DNA of 62,171 nucleotides, the filler included. It is 5 parts of 5 records of this genome, joined end to end, with 100 filler letters (N's around TTAATTAATTAA, not from the genome) between each part and the next. Parts side by side here need not be neighbours in the genome. Positions count along the whole stretch, not along the records: positions 1 to 30,058 come from SRR2962707_1463; 4 more parts are not named here. One strand, written 5' to 3'. Shown here in pieces: positions 3,114-12,754 of this stretch; the stretch's first letter is position 1, and every line of letters starts with the position of its first letter. The translations under genes and the position numbers were made by a program. The notes beneath the pieces are model-generated. The model made no database searches, was not told where the DNA came from, and was given only the letters and a program-made list of their open reading frames with translations.

Positions 3114-3920
3114 CTACTGCGACGTCGCATTGAAGACGAACAGCGTTTCACCGTTGATCTTATATGTATCGATCAGCTCTTTCGCACGATCAGACACCAA
3201 CCAGCCCTCCAGCTTTTCCACCAAACCCGTTTTGACATGACTGTGTTGTTCAGGGTTCACAGGCAGGTAGGCATATTGATTAAACAGCACTGGATCACCG
3301 GCATAAAGCAGAGCCAAATCCCCCTTATTGCCAAAGTTCAACCAGCTGGCCCGGTCCGACATGATATAGCCGTTCATTCCCGAAGCCGTGTTCAAAGCAG
3401 CGCCCATGCCAGCACCAACAGCGTTGTACCAACCGCCAAAACTATCAACATCCAGACCCGCGCCAGCCCAAAGGCTTAGCTCTTTCTTATGTGTGCCACT
3501 GTCGTCGCCCCGACTGACAAACGCGCTTTCTTGGGCCGCGATTTTTTGCAGCGCGTCGACCGCATTTTCGGATCCCGAGATACCCGCGTCATCTGTATTT
3601 GGCCCAATAAAGACAAAGTCGTTGTACATGATTTCCCGGCGATGCGTGCCATAACCCTCAGCCAAAAACGCGTCTTCCGATTTGCGGGAATGCACAAGGA
3701 TCGCGTCAACGTCACCCTGACGTCCCAGTTTCAGGGCCTGACCTGTTCCGACAACCAAAAGCTGCACTTCAAGACCAAGGTCGTCTTTGACCGCGGGCAG
3801 CAAAATATCCGCCAGTCCAGAATTGTGGAAAGACGTGGTCACCGCCATGCGCATCGTATCGGCCTGAGCCTCTGCGGTCGTCATCATAAAAACCAAAAGG
3901 CAGAGTAATTTCCGTTTCAT
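3114..3920 (-). CDS. tupA: Tungstate ABC transporter substrate-binding protein
   Basis: Signal peptide then VTTSFHNSGL, VGTGQAL, MYNDFV, FVSRGDDSGTH motifs typical of TupA. Confidence 0.92.
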   Translation of the reverse strand: MKRKLLCLLVFMMTTAEAQADTMRMAVTTSFHNSGLADILLPAVKDDLGLEVQLLVVGTGQALKLGRQGDVDAILVHSRKSEDAFLAEGYGTHRREIMYNDFVFIGPNTDDAGISGSENAVDALQKIAAQESAFVSRGDDSGTHKKELSLWAGAGLDVDSFGGWYNAVGAGMGAALNTASGMNGYIMSDRASWLNFGNKGDLALLYAGDPVLFNQYAYLPVNPEQHSHVKTGLVEKLEGWLVSDRAKELIDTYKINGETLFVFNATSQ

Positions 3921-4624
3921 TCTACGATATCCCCTCTGAGGAAAGCTTGCGCCTGCATCGTTGTAGGTGCTTCAAAAAATGATTTGGCATCCGTTGCTTC
4001 GTGGACTTTGCCGCCCAACAGAAACAACACATCATCGGCCAGACGACGAGCCTGTCCCATGTCATGCGTGGACATGATCAACTTGGTGCCCCCCGCTTTG
4101 GCCGCTGCGAGAATGTCTTCGATCTCCCGCGTGGCGCGCCCATCAAGTGAGGCGCAGGGTTCATCCAGAAACAGGACTTTGGGTTCGCGGATCAAGGCGC
4201 GTGCAAGGGCCAGTTTTTGCTGTTCTCCGCCAGACAGGACCAATGCAGAGCGCGTCAGAGCGTCCTCCAGACCAACCCGATTGGCCCATATCTCAGCCTT
4301 TACTCGGGCAGCCCGTCGTGACACACCCGCCAATTGCAAGGGATAGGCCAGGTTATCAAGAACCGAGCGGCGCAACATGACAGGGCGTTGAAAGACAAAG
4401 GCCTGTTCACGACGGGCGATTTCAGTCGGACAGGCCCAGGCGATTGTCCCGCCATTTAAGCGCGCTGCACCATGCAGCATTCGAAGCAAGCTGGTTTTTC
4501 CAGATCCATTCGGGCCAACAACAATTGTCGTGCCTTCGTCATCAATCTTAAGGTCAACCGGACCCACCAGAACTTTGCCTCGGCGTCGGGTTATCGCGCT
4601 CGTCACAGTCAAGGGAAACAGCAT
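3917..4624 (-). CDS. tupC: Tungstate ABC transporter ATP-binding protein
   Basis: GPNGSGKT, LSGGEQQ, LFLDEP, STHD; ATG at 4624 just after the tupB stop. Confidence 0.9.
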   Translation of the reverse strand: MLFPLTVTSAITRRRGKVLVGPVDLKIDDEGTTIVVGPNGSGKTSLLRMLHGAARLNGGTIAWACPTEIARREQAFVFQRPVMLRRSVLDNLAYPLQLAGVSRRAARVKAEIWANRVGLEDALTRSALVLSGGEQQKLALARALIREPKVLFLDEPCASLDGRATREIEDILAAAKAGGTKLIMSTHDMGQARRLADDVLFLLGGKVHEATDAKSFFEAPTTMQAQAFLRGDIVE

Positions 4625-4625
4625 C

Positions 4626-5330
4626 TTACCAGCGCCCCTCTGTTTCCGTCTTACTAATCCAGTGGATCGTAAGATTGACTGAGATCGCGAGAGCAATCAA
4701 AACAAACCCAAGCCCCAAAGCCAGAGCAAAGTCCCCTTTCCCGGTTTCCAAAGCAATGGCTGTGGTCAAGACGCGGGTCGCATGATCAATATTGCCTCCC
4801 ACAATCATAATGGCGCCGACTTCGCCAATGGCCCGCCCAAACCCAGCCAGCGCCGCCGTCAGCAAAGCGCGCCGCGCGTCCCAAAGCAATGTGGTGATAC
4901 GTTGCCTCTGCGTGGCATTCATCGAGATCAGCAGGTCATGGTACTCTGACCAAAGATCGCGCAACGACTGATGTGCGATTGAGGCAATCAAGGGAACTAC
5001 AATCACAACTTGGGCAATGATCATTGCGCTTGGCGTAAAGAGCAACCCAAGCACACCGAAAGGCCCAGAGCGTGACAGCAACACATAGACCACAAGGCCA
5101 ACAACCACGGGCGGAAGCCCCATAAGCGCATTTAGAACCGCAATCGTGCTGCGCCGAAATCGAAACCGGCGCACGGCAAGCAACGCCGCCATCGGAAGCG
5201 CGATAATGCAGGCAATCAACAACGCGCTGACCGTCACCTGAAGGGACCGCAGCGTGATCTCAACCAGCTCTGCGTCCAATGTCAGGACGAGCCAGATAGC
5301 ACGGGACAAGCCGTCCCACAGATCAGTCAT
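4626..5330 (-). CDS. tupB: Tungstate ABC transporter permease
   Basis: NALMGLPPVVVGL, FGRAIGEVGA, TRVLTTAIALET motifs; hydrophobic helices. Confidence 0.92.
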   Translation of the reverse strand: MTDLWDGLSRAIWLVLTLDAELVEITLRSLQVTVSALLIACIIALPMAALLAVRRFRFRRSTIAVLNALMGLPPVVVGLVVYVLLSRSGPFGVLGLLFTPSAMIIAQVVIVVPLIASIAHQSLRDLWSEYHDLLISMNATQRQRITTLLWDARRALLTAALAGFGRAIGEVGAIMIVGGNIDHATRVLTTAIALETGKGDFALALGLGFVLIALAISVNLTIHWISKTETEGRW

Positions 5331-5583: not shown

Positions 5584-6339
5584 TTAACCGCGCCGCGCAG
5601 ATAGTTTTTCTGATAGAATTTCGGCAAGCGTTGCTGGCGCGACCAGTTGCGGGGCGTGGCCGGTGTTCATCGAAACCACATCAATCTCGGGAACCAAGCT
5701 CTGCATAAAGCGCTGCGCCTCAATCGGGATAGACTGGTCCGCAGTGGCTTCTATATAGAGTTTGGGCACGCTCTCGAACCTGTCTTTCGTCGTTGCGATG
5801 CGCAAGCGATGTCCGACCATGGGTTGTGGGGTTAACTGCGCCGCCGCTGCAGCCGCCATTTCAACCTCAGCATCCTGATAGAAATGCTGAATTGCTTTAT
5901 CTTCGGGGACAGAACAGGTCAGCCCATCCGGTGCCATTTGAATAAAGGGTGTGATCCCAAATTGACCGAGCGCAGGCGCCACATGCTGTTGCACCTCATC
6001 AAAGCCGCGTTCGTCTGGTAAAAGCATGCCCGCAAGATACACGGCCAGCGAGACTTTCTCTGGGTAAGCCTCGGCCCCGGCGGTAGTGAGCATGCCCCCG
6101 CCCGAATGTCCGACAAGAACGACGGGTCCAGGACTGTCCTCAATCGCGGCTTTCAACGCAGTATGATAATCGGCCTCTGTGACACTTTGAGCGGGAACGG
6201 GATGGTGCCCATTCCCCGGCAAGTCCAAGGCAACAGCCTCAAGCCCGCGTTTTTCGAGTTCGGGCAAAAGCCGCCCCCATCCCCACGCGCCTTGCCATGC
6301 GCCGTGGATCAGGATCAATCGCTCAGGATTTTGTGACAT
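5584..6339 (-). CDS. Alpha/beta fold hydrolase (methylesterase/SABP2-like)
   Basis: LIHGAWQG, GHSGG nucleophile elbow, D (ADQSIP) and H (TGHAPQL) triad; start MSQNPE overlaps upstream gene. Confidence 0.88.
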   Translation of the reverse strand: MSQNPERLILIHGAWQGAWGWGRLLPELEKRGLEAVALDLPGNGHHPVPAQSVTEADYHTALKAAIEDSPGPVVLVGHSGGGMLTTAGAEAYPEKVSLAVYLAGMLLPDERGFDEVQQHVAPALGQFGITPFIQMAPDGLTCSVPEDKAIQHFYQDAEVEMAAAAAAQLTPQPMVGHRLRIATTKDRFESVPKLYIEATADQSIPIEAQRFMQSLVPEIDVVSMNTGHAPQLVAPATLAEILSEKLSARRG

Positions 6340-7279
6340 AGGTCCGCGCATACATGGCTTTCAAATGATCCTGCACTTTGATCGGCGGGTATTTCGGCGT
6401 TTCGCCCTCAGCCAAGCAAGTATCAATGCATTCCACCTCGTGCATTGGATTACCGGAATAAAAGAACGGAATGGAATACCGTTCGCGTCCAGAACGATTG
6501 ATCACCCGGTGCAGGGTCGAGCGATAGCGGTCATTTGTCCAACGCGCGATCATGTCGCCAAGATTAACGATATAGGCCCCCGGCACGGGCGGTGCTTCGA
6601 TCCACGTTTCGTTGACGATATCCCAGACCTGCAGCCCCCCCACGTCATCCTGCAACAGCATTGTGAGACCGCCAAAATCGGTATGCGCCCCTGCGCCCAT
6701 TTCGGACGGCACATCAGGGCGCGATGGGGGATAGTGCAAAAGCCTCAGAGTCGCGGCAGGGTCCCTCGTAAACGCTGAAAAATGGTCTTCGGCAAGGTTA
6801 AGCGACAAGGCCAACCCCAACATCAATCGCTCTGCAACGATATTAAGCGCGGCAAAATAGGCGACCATCACAGGACGAAACGCCGGCAAATCATCCGGCC
6901 ATTGGTTCGCTCCGGCGTTAAACTCTCCTGCCAGAACGCGCGGATGGGTCGGCGCCAAGTCTTCGCCGATATAAAACCCTTCTTTGCGGTCCGGCAATGC
7001 ACCGGGTTGCAGCGTCTGACCACCCAAAGTTTCATACCCTCGGGTCGCGGGTGACTTGGATTTATCGAGGGCATCCTTGGCTTCATTCGGCAAATCGAAC
7101 AAGGCGCGGGTCTGATCCATCGCCGCCGAGATCAGTCCTTCGGGCACCCCATGCCCGGTACAATAGAAAAACCCATGTTCCGAGCAAGCCTGCCGCAAAG
7201 CATCCCCGACAGCAGCGCGTGCTGCCGGGTCTGATGAAGATAGGTTGGACATATCAATGATCGGAAGCCCCATGGTCAC
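6323..7279 (-). CDS. 2OG-Fe(II) oxygenase, isopenicillin N synthase-like family (copy 2)
   Basis: LPIIDMS N-terminus, LRLLHYPP, GAHTDFG (HxD), NLGDM, STLHRV, RYSIPFF (RxS). Confidence 0.93.
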   Translation of the reverse strand: MTMGLPIIDMSNLSSSDPAARAAVGDALRQACSEHGFFYCTGHGVPEGLISAAMDQTRALFDLPNEAKDALDKSKSPATRGYETLGGQTLQPGALPDRKEGFYIGEDLAPTHPRVLAGEFNAGANQWPDDLPAFRPVMVAYFAALNIVAERLMLGLALSLNLAEDHFSAFTRDPAATLRLLHYPPSRPDVPSEMGAGAHTDFGGLTMLLQDDVGGLQVWDIVNETWIEAPPVPGAYIVNLGDMIARWTNDRYRSTLHRVINRSGRERYSIPFFYSGNPMHEVECIDTCLAEGETPKYPPIKVQDHLKAMYARTYVTKS

Positions 7280-8274
7280 TTCTTCCCGAAATTCGCGCCA
7301 AGGCGCATTTGGATATACTCATGCGCGGTCATGGCCTCGTATTTCTTTTCCGGACCTTCCAGGACCGTGTCCATATTGGCCTGACAGAAGAACGCCATCG
7401 AATAGCGTGGCCCTAAATAGCTGTCCGGCTTGGGCATCCGCACACGGTGCAAGTTTGACAACAGCTTATCATCAGACCAGCGCATCAACATGTCTCCGAT
7501 GTTGCACGTTATCACCCCGCCCAAAGGTGGCACATCTGTCCAGGCGATCGCGCGGCCTTTGGTATCTTTGCCCGGACAGACCTGCAGCCCCCCCTGCCCT
7601 TCGCGTTGATGAAGCAAGGTCAGGCAATCAAAGTCTGTATGCGCCCCGGCGCGCCAAAATCGAAAATCTTCCTCTTTGGCGTCTTCCATACCCAGATAGT
7701 GCAACAGACGAAGGGTCGATTGATACTCTGGCACCATGGGGTCATGACCATCGGTGAAAAAGTCGTCAGGAAAGCCCAGCTTGTCTGCGAAACACGACAG
7801 CACTTTCATCCCTAGCGCCCAGTTGTGCCGCTCAAAGGCCAACATGGTGGCTTTAAACCCCGGCAGCTCTGCACCTGTGGGCCACAAGGCAGACATACGC
7901 GGTAAAGTGATCTGATAACTTTCCTTGCGATCCGCCGTCCCTGTCGAGGGACGCACTTGCGCCATATATTCCCATCCGGAATTGGTGCCGGGTTTAAGGG
8001 GGTATTGCGCTTTGGTCTCATTTGGCAGATCGAAAAAGCCTGCGGACAAGGAAAATGCCTCGTCGATCAGCTCTTCTGGAATACCGTGATTGGCCAGTTG
8101 GAAAAACCCGATCCCTGTGGCTGCCTCCCAGAGCTCCTCTGTAATCTCCGCTTTCCGATTAAAAAAATCGGACATGTCGATCTGCGGAATGTCCCGTTCA
8201 ACTTCTTCGCCAAGCCCACCAAACCCGGTCTCTTTGTTCAGCTCTTTCAACTCATAATTTGTTTCTGTGCTCAT
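7276..8274 (-). CDS. 2OG-Fe(II) oxygenase, isopenicillin N synthase-like family (copy 1)
   Basis: IPQIDMS, LRLLHY, AGAHTDFD, NIGDM, SNLHRV, RYSMAFF; ATG 8274 preceded by GGAG. Confidence 0.93.
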   Translation of the reverse strand: MSTETNYELKELNKETGFGGLGEEVERDIPQIDMSDFFNRKAEITEELWEAATGIGFFQLANHGIPEELIDEAFSLSAGFFDLPNETKAQYPLKPGTNSGWEYMAQVRPSTGTADRKESYQITLPRMSALWPTGAELPGFKATMLAFERHNWALGMKVLSCFADKLGFPDDFFTDGHDPMVPEYQSTLRLLHYLGMEDAKEEDFRFWRAGAHTDFDCLTLLHQREGQGGLQVCPGKDTKGRAIAWTDVPPLGGVITCNIGDMLMRWSDDKLLSNLHRVRMPKPDSYLGPRYSMAFFCQANMDTVLEGPEKKYEAMTAHEYIQMRLGANFGKK

Positions 8275-8316
8275 CTCTGTCTCCATACGAATTGGCCCAA
8301 GTCGGCCATGGGGTCT

Positions 8317-8361
8317 GGAGCAATGACCTACGCGTTTCACGGCGCTGACAGCTTATACTCC
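8317..8361 (-). promoter_or_regulatory. Xanthine (NMT1 motif) riboswitch-like aptamer, variant, internal to operon
   Basis: Minus strand GGAGUAUAAGCUGUCAGCGCCGUGAAACGCGUAGGUCAUUGCUCC. P1 GGAGUA/UGCUCC, conserved AAGC and AUUGCUC, CUG/UAG pairing in place of CGG/CCG of the leader copy; lies between amidohydrolase stop and oxygenase start. Confidence 0.75.
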
Positions 8362-8374
8362 GGTTGAATGACGG

Positions 8375-9754
8375 TCAGGCAGCCAAGGCAGCCTCCCGTC
8401 GGGTAATAAGTCGGGCTGTGACGCGACGGGCATCCTCAGCCAAAGTGGGAAGGTCGGTATTTGGCAAACATCCGTTCACAACCAAGGGCTTTCCACCGAT
8501 AAAGCTATGGCGCACGCGGGCGCCGCCCGTGATGATCGGCGCCACAGCTGGGTCGTGGAGGCCGAAGGCGCGCGGCTCTGTCAGGTCGAACAGCACAATA
8601 TCCGCGGCCATGCCGGGTTCAAGCCGCCCGATTTTGGGAAACCCCAAAGCGCGCGCCCCCCCGTCTGTGGCCCAATGCAAAATCGTTTCAGCCTTTGCGG
8701 CACCGACACCTTTTGTTGCCCGGTGCAGGGCAAAGGCGGAATACAGTGCCAGCCCCATATCTGCGGCTTCATTGGCTCCCGCGCCATCGACGGCCATCGA
8801 GACGATACCGCCTGCCTCGTGCAAAGCATCCGCTGGTGCAATTCCCGACCCCAAACGCGCATTTGCCTGGGGGCAATGTGCCATGGCCGTTCCGGTCTGC
8901 GCCAACAGGTCCACTTCGTCCGCGTCAATCTCGACCATATGTGCAAACCACACATCCGGCCCAAGCCATCCGTGTTTTTCCAGCCAAGGCACAGGGCGTT
9001 GCCCATGAACCTTGAGAGTGTAGTCCACATAAGCCATGTTTTCCGACAGATGGGAATGAAGCCGAAGCCCCCCCGCCCGCGCTGTCTGAGCGATTTCGGA
9101 CAGCATCCCGGCGTCGACGTTAAAAGTCGGCGTCGTCGGCGCAACAGCCAAACGCGTCATGGAAAAATCCGACGGGTCATGCCACTTGGCCGCGCTATCC
9201 TGAATACGACCAAGATACTGATCCAGCGTTTCGATGGGCGACGGTGGCAAAGTCGGATCGTCAAAGCTGCGGCCCTTTGTGCCGCCGCCTCGTGCCAGAA
9301 CCAGTCGCAAACCGCATTTCTGAGCCTCGTCAAAAAGAACCTCGACCGGATCATAATCGTAGCGATCTGAGAAAACATAATGGTGGTCGCTTACCGTCGT
9401 GACACCCGTCAGCGCCAGCTCAGCCAAGCCAATCCGAGCCGAGACACGCAGGGTCTCTTCGTCAAGCAAGGGCCACCATGTATAGGGCACCTGCATCAAC
9501 CAAGTGTCTAAAGCTTCGTTCAAGCCGTTCGGCACACCCTTCAAAACCGACTGGAACAAATGGTGATGCGTATTCACCAATCCCGGCGTGACAACACAAC
9601 CTGTGGCATCCACAACCCGCTCACCCGGCAAGGGGGTCAGATCGCCGATTTCCGCAATTGTCCCGGCCTTAACCCGTAAAGCACCAGAAAACCGCTTGCC
9701 GTCGGCATCTCCGACCAAACCATGGGCAATATTCTGGATTAGAAAATCGCTCAT
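8375..9754 (-). CDS. Amidohydrolase, 8-oxoguanine/isoxanthopterin deaminase (AtzB-like) group
   Basis: PGLVNTHHHLFQ, LHSHLSE, WFAH, AHCPQAN, AVDGAGANE metal-site motifs; start MSDFLI overlaps permease stop (ATGA). Confidence 0.88.
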   Translation of the reverse strand: MSDFLIQNIAHGLVGDADGKRFSGALRVKAGTIAEIGDLTPLPGERVVDATGCVVTPGLVNTHHHLFQSVLKGVPNGLNEALDTWLMQVPYTWWPLLDEETLRVSARIGLAELALTGVTTVSDHHYVFSDRYDYDPVEVLFDEAQKCGLRLVLARGGGTKGRSFDDPTLPPSPIETLDQYLGRIQDSAAKWHDPSDFSMTRLAVAPTTPTFNVDAGMLSEIAQTARAGGLRLHSHLSENMAYVDYTLKVHGQRPVPWLEKHGWLGPDVWFAHMVEIDADEVDLLAQTGTAMAHCPQANARLGSGIAPADALHEAGGIVSMAVDGAGANEAADMGLALYSAFALHRATKGVGAAKAETILHWATDGGARALGFPKIGRLEPGMAADIVLFDLTEPRAFGLHDPAVAPIITGGARVRHSFIGGKPLVVNGCLPNTDLPTLAEDARRVTARLITRREAALAA

Positions 9755-11372: not shown

Positions 11373-12364
11373 GAGCCGCTCGGCAAGAAGGAACGGTCCA
11401 CAATGGCTTCGGGCTCAAGCGCTGCTGGATCTAGTCCCTGGCTTTCAGCAACCCGCGACCATGTCGCCGCCAGACGACCCGCCTCAATCGTGCCCAGACC
11501 ATCAGCATCCGTGACTTCATTGAAGATCAATTTGCTGGCATCTAACCAAGATCCCATGACATCTTCGGCACCAAGTTCAGGTACAATCGCCGACACAGCT
11601 TCACCAGCCTTCATCGGGTTTTCCTTAGCAAACTCAATGGACTTTTGCAGAGCCGCAACAAAGCGTTTTGCCACTTCGGGACGCTCTGTCAGGAACTTGT
11701 CAGAGGCAACGAGTGAGGCCGAGTAAAGCTCCAACCCGGCATCTGACCAAGGCAAGACAACAATTTCTTTGCCCGCATCAGCGGCTTGCCCCTTGTAACG
11801 CGACACGTCCGTCAGCCAAGCGATGATCGCGTCGGCCTGACCTGTCATTAAAAGCGGCCCCAATGTGCCGGGATCAGATTTGGTGAGTGAAATGTCATCT
11901 TCGCTCAGACCGTTGTCGGACAGAACCAGCGGCAGAAAGACGTTGGACGAGGTAAAGGGCGATGTGGCAATCGCCTTGCCTTTAACGTCCGCGATTGAGG
12001 AAATGCCTTTATCTGCAGTTGTATAGAAGGCGTGCGGGCCTTTGTTGAACAAAGACATCACTGCTTTGACCGGCACATTCTCAGTGGCAATCGCGGCCAT
12101 CAAAGCGCCCATGCCCGCTGAACCAATGTCCGACGATCCGGTGGCGATCTTTGTGATTGCTTCCGACGAACCGCGACCCGGTTCAATCGATACGTCCAGT
12201 CCGGCCTCGGCACAGAAGCCTTCTTGGATGCAGACATAGATCGGCGCTTTGTCTCCACCGGGCAGCCAATCGAGCTGGTAAGTAACTTTGTCTGCGGCCT
12301 GAGCCGATGTCGCCATCAACGCCGAGGCAGCAAGGCCCAAGAATTTGGGATTACGGAAAAACAC
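11369..12364 (-). CDS. ABC transporter substrate-binding protein, NMT1/THI5-like
   Basis: Signal peptide, KVTYQLDW, EAGLDVSIEPGRGS motifs; GTG start after AAGGA. Confidence 0.9.
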   Translation of the reverse strand: MFFRNPKFLGLAASALMATSAQAADKVTYQLDWLPGGDKAPIYVCIQEGFCAEAGLDVSIEPGRGSSEAITKIATGSSDIGSAGMGALMAAIATENVPVKAVMSLFNKGPHAFYTTADKGISSIADVKGKAIATSPFTSSNVFLPLVLSDNGLSEDDISLTKSDPGTLGPLLMTGQADAIIAWLTDVSRYKGQAADAGKEIVVLPWSDAGLELYSASLVASDKFLTERPEVAKRFVAALQKSIEFAKENPMKAGEAVSAIVPELGAEDVMGSWLDASKLIFNEVTDADGLGTIEAGRLAATWSRVAESQGLDPAALEPEAIVDRSFLPSGS

Positions 12365-12503
12365 AACGGTATCCTTTCAACATGGTCAAAAACAGGTGGG
12401 ATGAGCGGGCACTTGGCATAGCCAAAGTCAGGCAGTTTAGGTTTTGCGTCATCATCAGCCTCCCTGCGCATTCACAGCGCTTGTGGAAATAGGGTCCTCA
12501 GAT

Positions 12504-12542
12504 GAGCAATGTACGGGCGCTCGGCCCTACCGCTTCTACTCC
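12504..12542 (-). promoter_or_regulatory. Xanthine (NMT1 motif) riboswitch aptamer in operon leader
   Basis: Minus strand GGAGUAGAAGCGGUAGGGCCGAGCGCCCGUACAUUGCUC matches the recalled consensus GAGUAGAAGCG...CCCG-NNN-AUUGCUC; upstream of an NMT1/THI5 gene with 2OG oxygenases and deaminases, the known context of this class. Confidence 0.85.
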
Positions 12543-12754
12543 CAGTCAGGGCACCACAACGGCCGAACACGGTTAAGTATTTTCGAGGTTTTTTTGCCTG
12601 ACTCGCGATTTGGAGATCAAAATGCAGGCGTTCATTTGGCTATTTGATCAAAAAAATGGCAGAATTTGCGCAAACATTCAGAAATTCCCAAGTTTCGATT
12701 GCACCAAATGGCATCCAACGAAACCGTGACACCGATCAAATTCGGAGCACCACC

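Follow-up and report, generated by a model that had tools for sequence, protein, structure and literature searches.

The minus strand of the window (the whole stretch of DNA that was analysed, 62,171 nt long, filler included) carries, in this order, a leader aptamer, genes for an NMT1/THI5-type binding protein, an ABC ATPase, a permease and an amidohydrolase, an internal aptamer, and genes for two 2OG-Fe(II) dioxygenases and an alpha/beta hydrolase, with a CDA-fold deaminase gene located divergently from this operon. As identified with Pfam and NCBIfam, this gene set matches the known association of the NMT1 motif with pcbC-like dioxygenases, NMT1/tauA, PRK12393 and tadA, which are among the gene families listed by Yu and Breaker, the pcbC-like association corresponding to dioxygenases that display DIOX_N and 2OG-FeII_Oxy domains (PMC7373994). 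The amidohydrolase matches Pfam Amidohydro_1 (E 1.6e-45) and NCBIfam NF009059 PRK12393 (577 bits for a cut-off of 543). The AUG of the first dioxygenase gene is backed by orthologs that align from residue 1, and the GUG start of the second overlaps the UGA stop of the first. The order dioxygenase 1, dioxygenase 2, hydrolase recurs in many relative loci, and coupling probably brings the second dioxygenase and the alpha/beta hydrolase under the same regulation. The operon is directly followed, at 3114-5330 on the minus strand, by tungstate-type ABC transporter genes (a TupA-like binding protein with 190.8 bits for a cut-off of 400, an ATPase, and a TupB-like permease with 161.9 bits for a cut-off of 320), which are probably unrelated to the riboswitch unit. 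The features of the locus are listed below.

5584 to 7279, minus strand: second 2OG-Fe(II) dioxygenase gene (7279-6323) and alpha/beta hydrolase gene (6351-5584), from ORFs and domain matches
7276 to 8274, minus strand: first 2OG-Fe(II) dioxygenase gene (DIOX_N and 2OG-FeII_Oxy), AUG at 8274-8272, from Pfam and 80 orthologous loci with 69-84% identity
8281 to 8285, minus strand: Shine-Dalgarno (SD) region UGGAG of the dioxygenase gene, 6 nt before the AUG, from the sequence
8293 to 8308, minus strand: spacer hairpin UGGCC-GACUUG-GGCCA, predicted in all three folding states, which would bring the P1 3' strand and the SD together
8313 to 8365, minus strand: Xanthine-I (NMT1 motif) riboswitch aptamer, from RF03054 and model R1
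8317 to 8322, minus strand: P1 3' strand UGCUCC, proposed anti-SD, from alignment, folding and comparison
8323 to 8329, minus strand: 3' core side with A8329, G8328, the P2a 3' strand GUC (8327-8325), A8324 and U8323, from the RF03054 alignment and PMC8266621
8330 to 8345, minus strand: P2b hairpin GCGC...GCGU with an 8-nt loop and the closing wobble pair G8345-U8330, from alignment and folding
8347 to 8349, minus strand: P2a 5' strand GUC, pairing with 8327-8325 (GUC) as G:C, U-U mismatch and C:G, from the RF03054 alignment
8350 to 8355, minus strand: J1 5' strand UAAGCU, from the Rfam alignment, with nucleotide roles from PMC8266621
8356 to 8361, minus strand: P1 5' strand GGAGUA, which includes the SD look-alike GGAG, from the Rfam alignment
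8375 to 9754, minus strand: amidohydrolase gene (NCBIfam PRK12393 type) upstream of the switch, stop UGA at 8377-8375, from Pfam, NCBIfam and the ORF listing
12499 to 12546, minus strand: leader aptamer copy with a short P2, upstream of NMT1-type binding-protein and ABC transporter genes, with 31.5 bits for RF03054 and 44.7 bits for model R1

The initial annotation had placed a xanthine-class aptamer in the spacer between two cistrons, and this was borne out: RF03054, the Rfam Xanthine/NMT1 model, matches the minus strand at 8365-8313 over its full length (model positions 1-56) with 44.2 bits, above the gathering score of 36 (E 1.7e-6), and our own covariance model R1 scores the same segment at 51.9 bits. 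Read 5' to 3', the RNA consists of the amidohydrolase UGA stop (8377-8375), a 13-nt spacer, GGAGUA (8361-8356), UAAGCU (8355-8350), GUC, A, the P2b hairpin, AG, GUC, AU, UGCUCC (8322-8317), A, the spacer hairpin, UGGAG, 6 nt and the AUG at 8274, so that P1 begins at 8361, 13 nt past the upstream gene. All RF03054 helices are aligned (P1 - J1 - P2a - J2 - P2b) and the pocket nucleotides A6, A8, A9, G10, C11, G35, A39, U40 and U41 of the crystal structure are all present at 8356, 8354-8351, 8328 and 8324-8322 (Rfam 10, 12-15, 41 and 45-47). Within J1, the conserved pocket nucleotides are A8354, A8353, G8352 and C8351, which are preceded by the variant nucleotide U8355 (Rfam 11, crystal G7) and followed by U8350 (Rfam 16, crystal G12); on the opposite side, G8328 corresponds to crystal G35, which forms a tertiary pair with C8351, and A8324 and U8323 to crystal A39 and U40. 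The RNA at 8313-8365 is certainly a genuine member of the known xanthine-I class.

The two strings on which the earlier comparison of the copies had been built are both found on the minus strand, GAGUA-UAAGCUG...UAG-GUC-AUUGCUC at 8360-8318 for the internal copy and GAGUA-GAAGCGG...CCG-UAC-AUUGCUC at 12541-12504 for the leader copy, and the general pattern GAGTA-N20-45-CATTGCTC occurs twice in the window for 0.02 occurrences expected from 100 shuffles. The leader copy (12546-12499) scores only 31.5 bits with RF03054 (E 0.0026, below the threshold of 36) because its P2 is short, and the internal copy, with 44.2 bits, is thus the better match to the family. Contigs that are 95-99% alike, from three runs in as many studies, are identical over 8313-8365 and differ at nearby positions; since all of them display the same U at 8355, this letter is not a sequencing error. 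In one related strain (run X3), position 8307 is changed from C to T on the plus strand, which turns the G of the UGGCC arm into A and results in a mismatch in the spacer hairpin with no compensating change.

Searching with the dioxygenase as query retrieved 80 alphaproteobacterial loci with 69-84% identity and none closer, which together with the window represent 81 sources. Model R1, built from 72 aptamers found by motif search, yielded 119 matches in these sources, and in 67 of the 81 the same 2OG-Fe(II) dioxygenase gene is preceded by an aptamer at a distance of at most 115 nt (hereafter, proximal aptamers). When the window is set aside, a same-strand operon gene directly precedes the proximal aptamer in 52 of 66 loci (42 amidohydrolase, 9 permease and 1 deaminase), with a gap between stop codon and P1 of at most 20 nt in 17 of these and at most 40 nt in 34; the other 14 loci have no operon gene directly upstream, and there the aptamer is a true 5' leader. 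Because of this recurrence, the occurrence of an internal xanthine riboswitch before the dioxygenase gene is, as judged from the compared loci, a conserved arrangement of which the window copy is the local ortholog. In a phylum-wide sample, a match was found in only 3 of 151 genomes, too few for frequencies.

Proximal aptamers differ from the others in the pair that closes P1 (Rfam 5:52), which is G:C in 65 of 67 proximal copies and in none of the 52 other aptamers (Fisher p = 8e-32, a value that ignores kinship), where it varies (CA 17, CG 13, UG 5, AG 4, UA 3 and so on). In the proximal copies this results in a GGAGUA/UGCUCC P1, followed at 8-56 nt by a GGAG-type SD, and its 3' strand is therefore proposed to act as an anti-SD; the invariance of the closing pair could in part reflect shared descent. 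A single proximal aptamer among the 119 (L027:6931-6979) displays GGAGCA/UGCUCU instead, in which the P1 U-G wobble (crystal U5-G42) has become C-G and the closing pair G-U. Six loci (L005, L038, L049, L052, L059 and L060, at about 6560-6980 in each) have two same-strand xanthine-I aptamers upstream of the dioxygenase gene, ca. 190-290 nt apart and with no large gene detected between them; in the part seen of a 2022 review, xanthine-I is placed among the classes not found in tandem (PMC9481103).

Most of the letters by which the internal copy departs from the leader copy are common in proximal aptamers. At Rfam 43, where the window reads GUC instead of GAC, U occurs in 59 of the 67 proximal copies vs A in 49 of the 52 others, and this U faces either U (49/67) or G (17/67) at Rfam 18, giving a U-U or G-U pair in P2a. 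At Rfam 16, A or U is found in 59 of the 67 proximal copies (A 37, U 22, G 7 and C 1), with G in 49 of the 52 others. Among the differing letters, only the U that follows GAGUA is rare, and it is a recurrent minority polymorphism: at Rfam 11, the 118 aligned aptamers have G in 107 cases, U in 11 and neither A nor C, with U in 10 of the 67 proximal copies and in 1 of the 52 others. It recurs in Labrenzia, Mesobacterium, Pseudooceanicola, Tritonibacter, Mesorhizobium and Zhengella records and alternates with G among close relatives, as in Labrenzia sp. OB1 and sp. 011 (U) compared with three Roseibium loci and one Stappia locus (G) having the same genes, or in three Pseudooceanicola species (U) compared with P. 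endophyticus (G). The window thus lacks the G of the first J1 nucleotide, a position that is highly conserved and not strictly defining, and the occurrence of G or U but never A or C would fit a tolerated substitution. U at Rfam 11 coincides with G at Rfam 18 in 7 of the 10 proximal U-forms vs 10 of the 57 G-forms, kinship being ignored, and the window combines it with U at Rfam 18.

The architecture itself is supported by covariation. Among the 119 aptamers, 86.2% of 1794 cells are paired, both partners vary in 10 of the 16 pairs, and covariation scores 0.221 vs 0.087 in shuffles (none of 500 as high), for an alignment that was fitted to the model and so leans to structure. Covariation is real in P2b, for instance at a pair with CG 50, GC 42, UA 5 and GU 5, and among 117 distinct rows Rfam 18:43 in P2a displays UA 54, GU 17 and other combinations 42. 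Rfam C15:G41, the known and invariant tertiary C11-G35 pair, is C:G in 100 of 114 cells, the remainder being alignment shifts in forms with a short J2. The compensatory changes that had been put forward as evidence for a conserved helix are another matter. Pairing CGG with CCG, as had been done, joins Rfam 15:41, 16:40 and 17:39, of which 15:41 is the tertiary pair just named. The first of the two other pairs, Rfam 16:40, is a standard pair in 37 of 109 cells, which is about chance; in the second, Rfam 17:39, the invariant G17 has C44 as its partner (G:C in 116 of the 117 distinct rows), Rfam 39 pairing with position 21 (GC 71, GU 15, AU 9). Neither pair exists in the accepted structure, as given by Rfam and by the crystal (PMC8266621), so both were rejected and the changes lose their value as structural evidence.

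Two explanations would see in these letters something other than natural variation. The U-U mismatch in P2a and the non-consensus U at a highly conserved position might suggest that the internal copy arose by duplication of the leader aptamer and is decaying without function; this is extremely improbable, as the internal copy outscores the leader copy, U-U or G-U at this place is the norm of the subgroup, with U at Rfam 43 in 59 of 67, the aptamer is conserved in 67 of 81 sources with covariation in P2b, and it is identical in three related strains whose flanks differ. The initial annotation had instead raised a shifted affinity or ligand, in which U8355, U8350 and U8326 would adapt the pocket to a different purine derivative or concentration range. 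The systematic differences of the proximal subgroup at Rfam 16 and Rfam 43 are in line with this, and, in the portion of the crystallographic study seen, a G12A mutant bound xanthine 7-fold more weakly and, next to a tested G7A/A8G swap, no single G7 mutant is reported (PMC8266621). The same portion nevertheless describes G12 and C34 as poorly conserved and tolerant; it has xanthine clamped by G10 and U40 and stacked by A6-U41-A9 and C11-G35-A39, with A8 essential in mutants, and assigns to G7 a contact with the U5-G42 wobble and a phosphate that binds Mg (PMC8266621). The bases that contact xanthine or its Mg ions are all invariant, the pocket nucleotides being identical in 67 of 67 proximal aptamers where scored, and close relatives that share these genes have either G or U at Rfam 11. 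It is thus rather improbable that the element is a variant in specificity or affinity. Since no nucleotide that contacts the ligand has changed, the data do not support a new ligand, and on this comparative reading both the GUC junction and the U that follows GAGUA are natural variation of the subgroup, each differing letter being either the subgroup majority or a state that flips among relatives. Of the "altered core nucleotide" that had been noted, the replacement of G by U after GAGUA stands, as variation seen in 11 of 118 aptamers; its significance as the mark of a new ligand does not.

The complementarity noted earlier between the end of P1 and the ribosome-binding site exists as described: CUCCA (8320-8316) is complementary to UGGAG (8285-8281), and between them lies the small hairpin formed by UGGCC (8308-8304) and GGCCA (8297-8293). 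In the unconstrained minimum free energy fold of the window RNA (-30.5 kcal/mol), UUGCUCCA pairs with UGGAG-A-CAG beside the AUG, around this hairpin, and the SD is paired to the P1 3' strand with a probability of 0.99; enforcing P1 gives -27.3 kcal/mol. In these models P1 and the pairing of its 3' strand with the SD/AUG region are mutually exclusive, and the cost of opening the stretch from the SD through the AUG decreases from 7.03 to 4.14 kcal/mol (+2.9 kcal/mol) when P1 is locked, so that the predicted release of the SD upon P1 formation, already suggested in the initial annotation, holds in silico; the SD is nevertheless unpaired with a probability of only 0.36 in the P1-enforced ensemble. 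Under equilibrium control, a gap of ca. 3 kcal/mol would require ligand well above its Kd.

A similar tendency is predicted for the relatives. Across the 65 proximal loci in which an SD can be recognised, the site becomes easier to open by 1.38 kcal/mol on average once P1 is forced; the change is above +1 in 35 loci, below -1 in 1 and in between in 29. The test leans to ON, since an imposed helix ties up competing partners of the ribosome-binding site. The window spacer gives a pairing probability of 1.0 between the SD and the P1 3' strand vs a mean of 0.53 for 60 shuffled spacers, none of which was as high. Real spacers of at least 26 nt, nearly all of which form a hairpin of their own, exceed their shuffled versions for this pairing in 31 of 34 loci, usually via that hairpin; short spacers give less pairing than shuffles in 24 of 31 loci, several of which pair the P1 3' strand with the first codons instead, and a simple hairpin model for every locus therefore fails. 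No locus-specific covariation was detected in the sequences flanking CUCC and GGAG, where the contiguous extension is 0.49 vs 0.48 (2407 of 5000 permutations as high) and the duplex energy -8.16 vs -8.18 in permutations, nor for the long spacers (-9.11 vs -8.80, 335 of 2000 permutations as low), so that the complementarity could be a by-product of two conserved motifs.

Taken together, the fold predictions point to the architecture of a translational ON switch, with the first dioxygenase gene (7276-8274) as the gene that would be placed under its control. The P1 3' strand UGCUCC, with the A that follows it, would pair with GGAGUA in the ligand-binding fold or, alternatively, with UGGAG and on to the AUG, in which case initiation would be blocked; xanthine or urate, by locking P1, would free the ribosome-binding site and turn dioxygenase translation on, and the two tightly coupled downstream genes would probably follow. 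On the comparative and thermodynamic evidence, we give a probability of about 0.55 to the reading that the proximal aptamer is a xanthine-I riboswitch with an ON-type, often intercistronic, platform. A broader proposal, in which a distinct subgroup (GGAGUA/UGCUCC P1, U at Rfam 43, A or U at Rfam 16) acts as translational ON switches, often within operons, with the leader copy serving uptake and deamination and the internal copy feeding forward onto the oxygenases, is tentative, and we would put it at slightly less than even odds.

The ON direction is the reverse of that published for the class, which the initial annotation had correctly given as OFF (PMC7373994). The OFF call comes from E. coli, in which a lacZ fusion of a Hydrogenophaga intermedia representative was compared, as wild type and as an A-to-U J1 point mutant, in both rich and minimal medium but with no titration of ligand (PMC7373994); it is repeated in the part seen of PMC8266621. 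Our full-text literature search found no ON member of the xanthine-I class; Yu and Breaker themselves pointed to the puzzle that no member seemed to activate genes, and speculated that in some species members should do so (PMC7373994). An ordinary OFF switch at the window would have ligand lower dioxygenase translation via structure outside the models, such as pairing of the SD with the 5' flank that gains stability when P1 forms, and the P1-enforced fold of the window does pair the SD with the 5' flank. This flank is, however, the end of a translated gene, which ribosomes would be expected to keep open, and in the folding models the sign is reversed for the window and for 35 of the 65 loci, the ribosome-binding site becoming harder to open with P1 forced in only 1 of 65. 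The one representative tested genetically was moreover associated with NMT1 genes, and its call rests on the J1 mutant. An OFF switch is unlikely at this locus. Control of transcript fate by Rho-dependent termination or RNA decay, or an own transcript from a promoter inside the amidohydrolase gene, is distinctly improbable: co-transcription of the junction is presumed and 14 of 66 loci have the aptamer as a true 5' leader, but the class is reported without terminators (PMC7373994), a scan of 8100-9000, weak for Alphaproteobacteria, found no terminator-like or sigma-70-like site, and the conserved short distance to the SD and the GGAG/CUCC design point to the ribosome site. The ON-type platform is thus the reading that we retain.

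Leader-type aptamers display a layout of their own. In the window, the leader copy is 135 nt from the start of the binding-protein gene (GUG at 12364), and between the two lies a 34-codon ORF, a mechanical ORF only (12455-12351, minus strand), with a strong GGGAGG site 3 nt before its AUG and a stop that overlaps the binding-protein start by 14 nt; this layout suggests a coupled leader ORF. In other leader-type copies (L043:2684-2900, L046, L051, L053, L068, L070, L073 and others), an SD and AUG occur ca. 15-60 nt past the aptamer, immediately followed by a stretch complementary to the aptamer 5' half (P1 5' strand and J1), which in L043 amounts to 12 pairs with one bulge in a hand alignment; Rhodobacterales leaders have a second copy of the P1 3' strand in its place. 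A J1 point mutation would weaken the helix between the 5' half and the start region, which bears on how the published OFF reporter is to be read. When proximal and leader-type aptamers are pooled in the opening-energy test, the 105 rows have a mean of +1.66, a further 8 aptamers having no ribosome-binding site found; start sites near the aptamer are positive and some distant binding-protein starts are negative (L043 -2.46, L065 -1.80, L047 -1.73). A divergent aptamer pair with an AGAGUA-type P1 (L081/L084, at G030:C1:1313907-1314101) is located before a Rieske oxygenase gene and a second frame, and the spacer between SD and AUG of the Rieske gene contains CGCUUC, complementary to J1 GAAGCG.

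Neither the aptamer nor its ligand class nor its association with these genes is new. When compared with xanthine-I as described (RF03054; Yu and Breaker 2020, PMC7373994; Xu et al. 2021, PMC8266621), a class that binds xanthine and uric acid at micromolar Kd, the window element has the same P1, J1, P2a, J2, P2b fold, the same pocket nucleotides, the same neighbourhood (NMT1-type binding protein, ABC transporter, PRK12393 amidohydrolase, pcbC-like dioxygenase and tadA-like deaminase) and likewise a platform based on the ribosome site with no terminator. It differs by the U in place of G at the first J1 nucleotide (crystal G7), by a U at Rfam 16, typical of the subgroup, and another at Rfam 43 (U-U in P2a), by the G:C pair closing P1 that is invariant in the subgroup and yields GGAG/CUCC, by its location between genes rather than at a 5' end, and by a platform that is predicted to be ON whereas the class is reported as OFF. 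Xanthine-II, a variant of the guanine riboswitch, is likewise described, in the part of the source seen, as sensing xanthine, associated with dioxygenase genes and a genetic ON switch, but it is an unrelated class with a different RNA fold and platforms described as terminator stems (PMC9295807). The predicted window mechanism, with its mutually exclusive closing and sequestering helices, resembles that of a switch with a different fold. In the add adenine riboswitch of Vibrio vulnificus, the closing helix and the helix that sequesters the ribosome-binding site exclude each other, and ligand frees the SD and the start codon. The add switch is a three-way junction that binds another ligand in a 5' leader, whereas the window element is a rod-like, two-stem fold between cistrons.

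In the published literature found, neither the subgroup of dioxygenase-proximal copies, as defined by sequence, nor its predicted ON-type platform, which is often intercistronic, appears to have been described. If the subgroup reading is true, one operon would hold two copies of a single aptamer class with different platforms. The OFF logic ascribed to the whole class may need re-testing, since it relies on a single J1 point mutant and, in leader-type copies, J1 and the P1 5' strand are complementary to the downstream start region. If the pcbC-type copies are ON switches, the xanthine-I class would gain a second logic, an intercistronic riboswitch would uncouple the genes of one operon, and the dioxygenases would be expected to act on xanthine or urate, or downstream of them, rather than to produce them.
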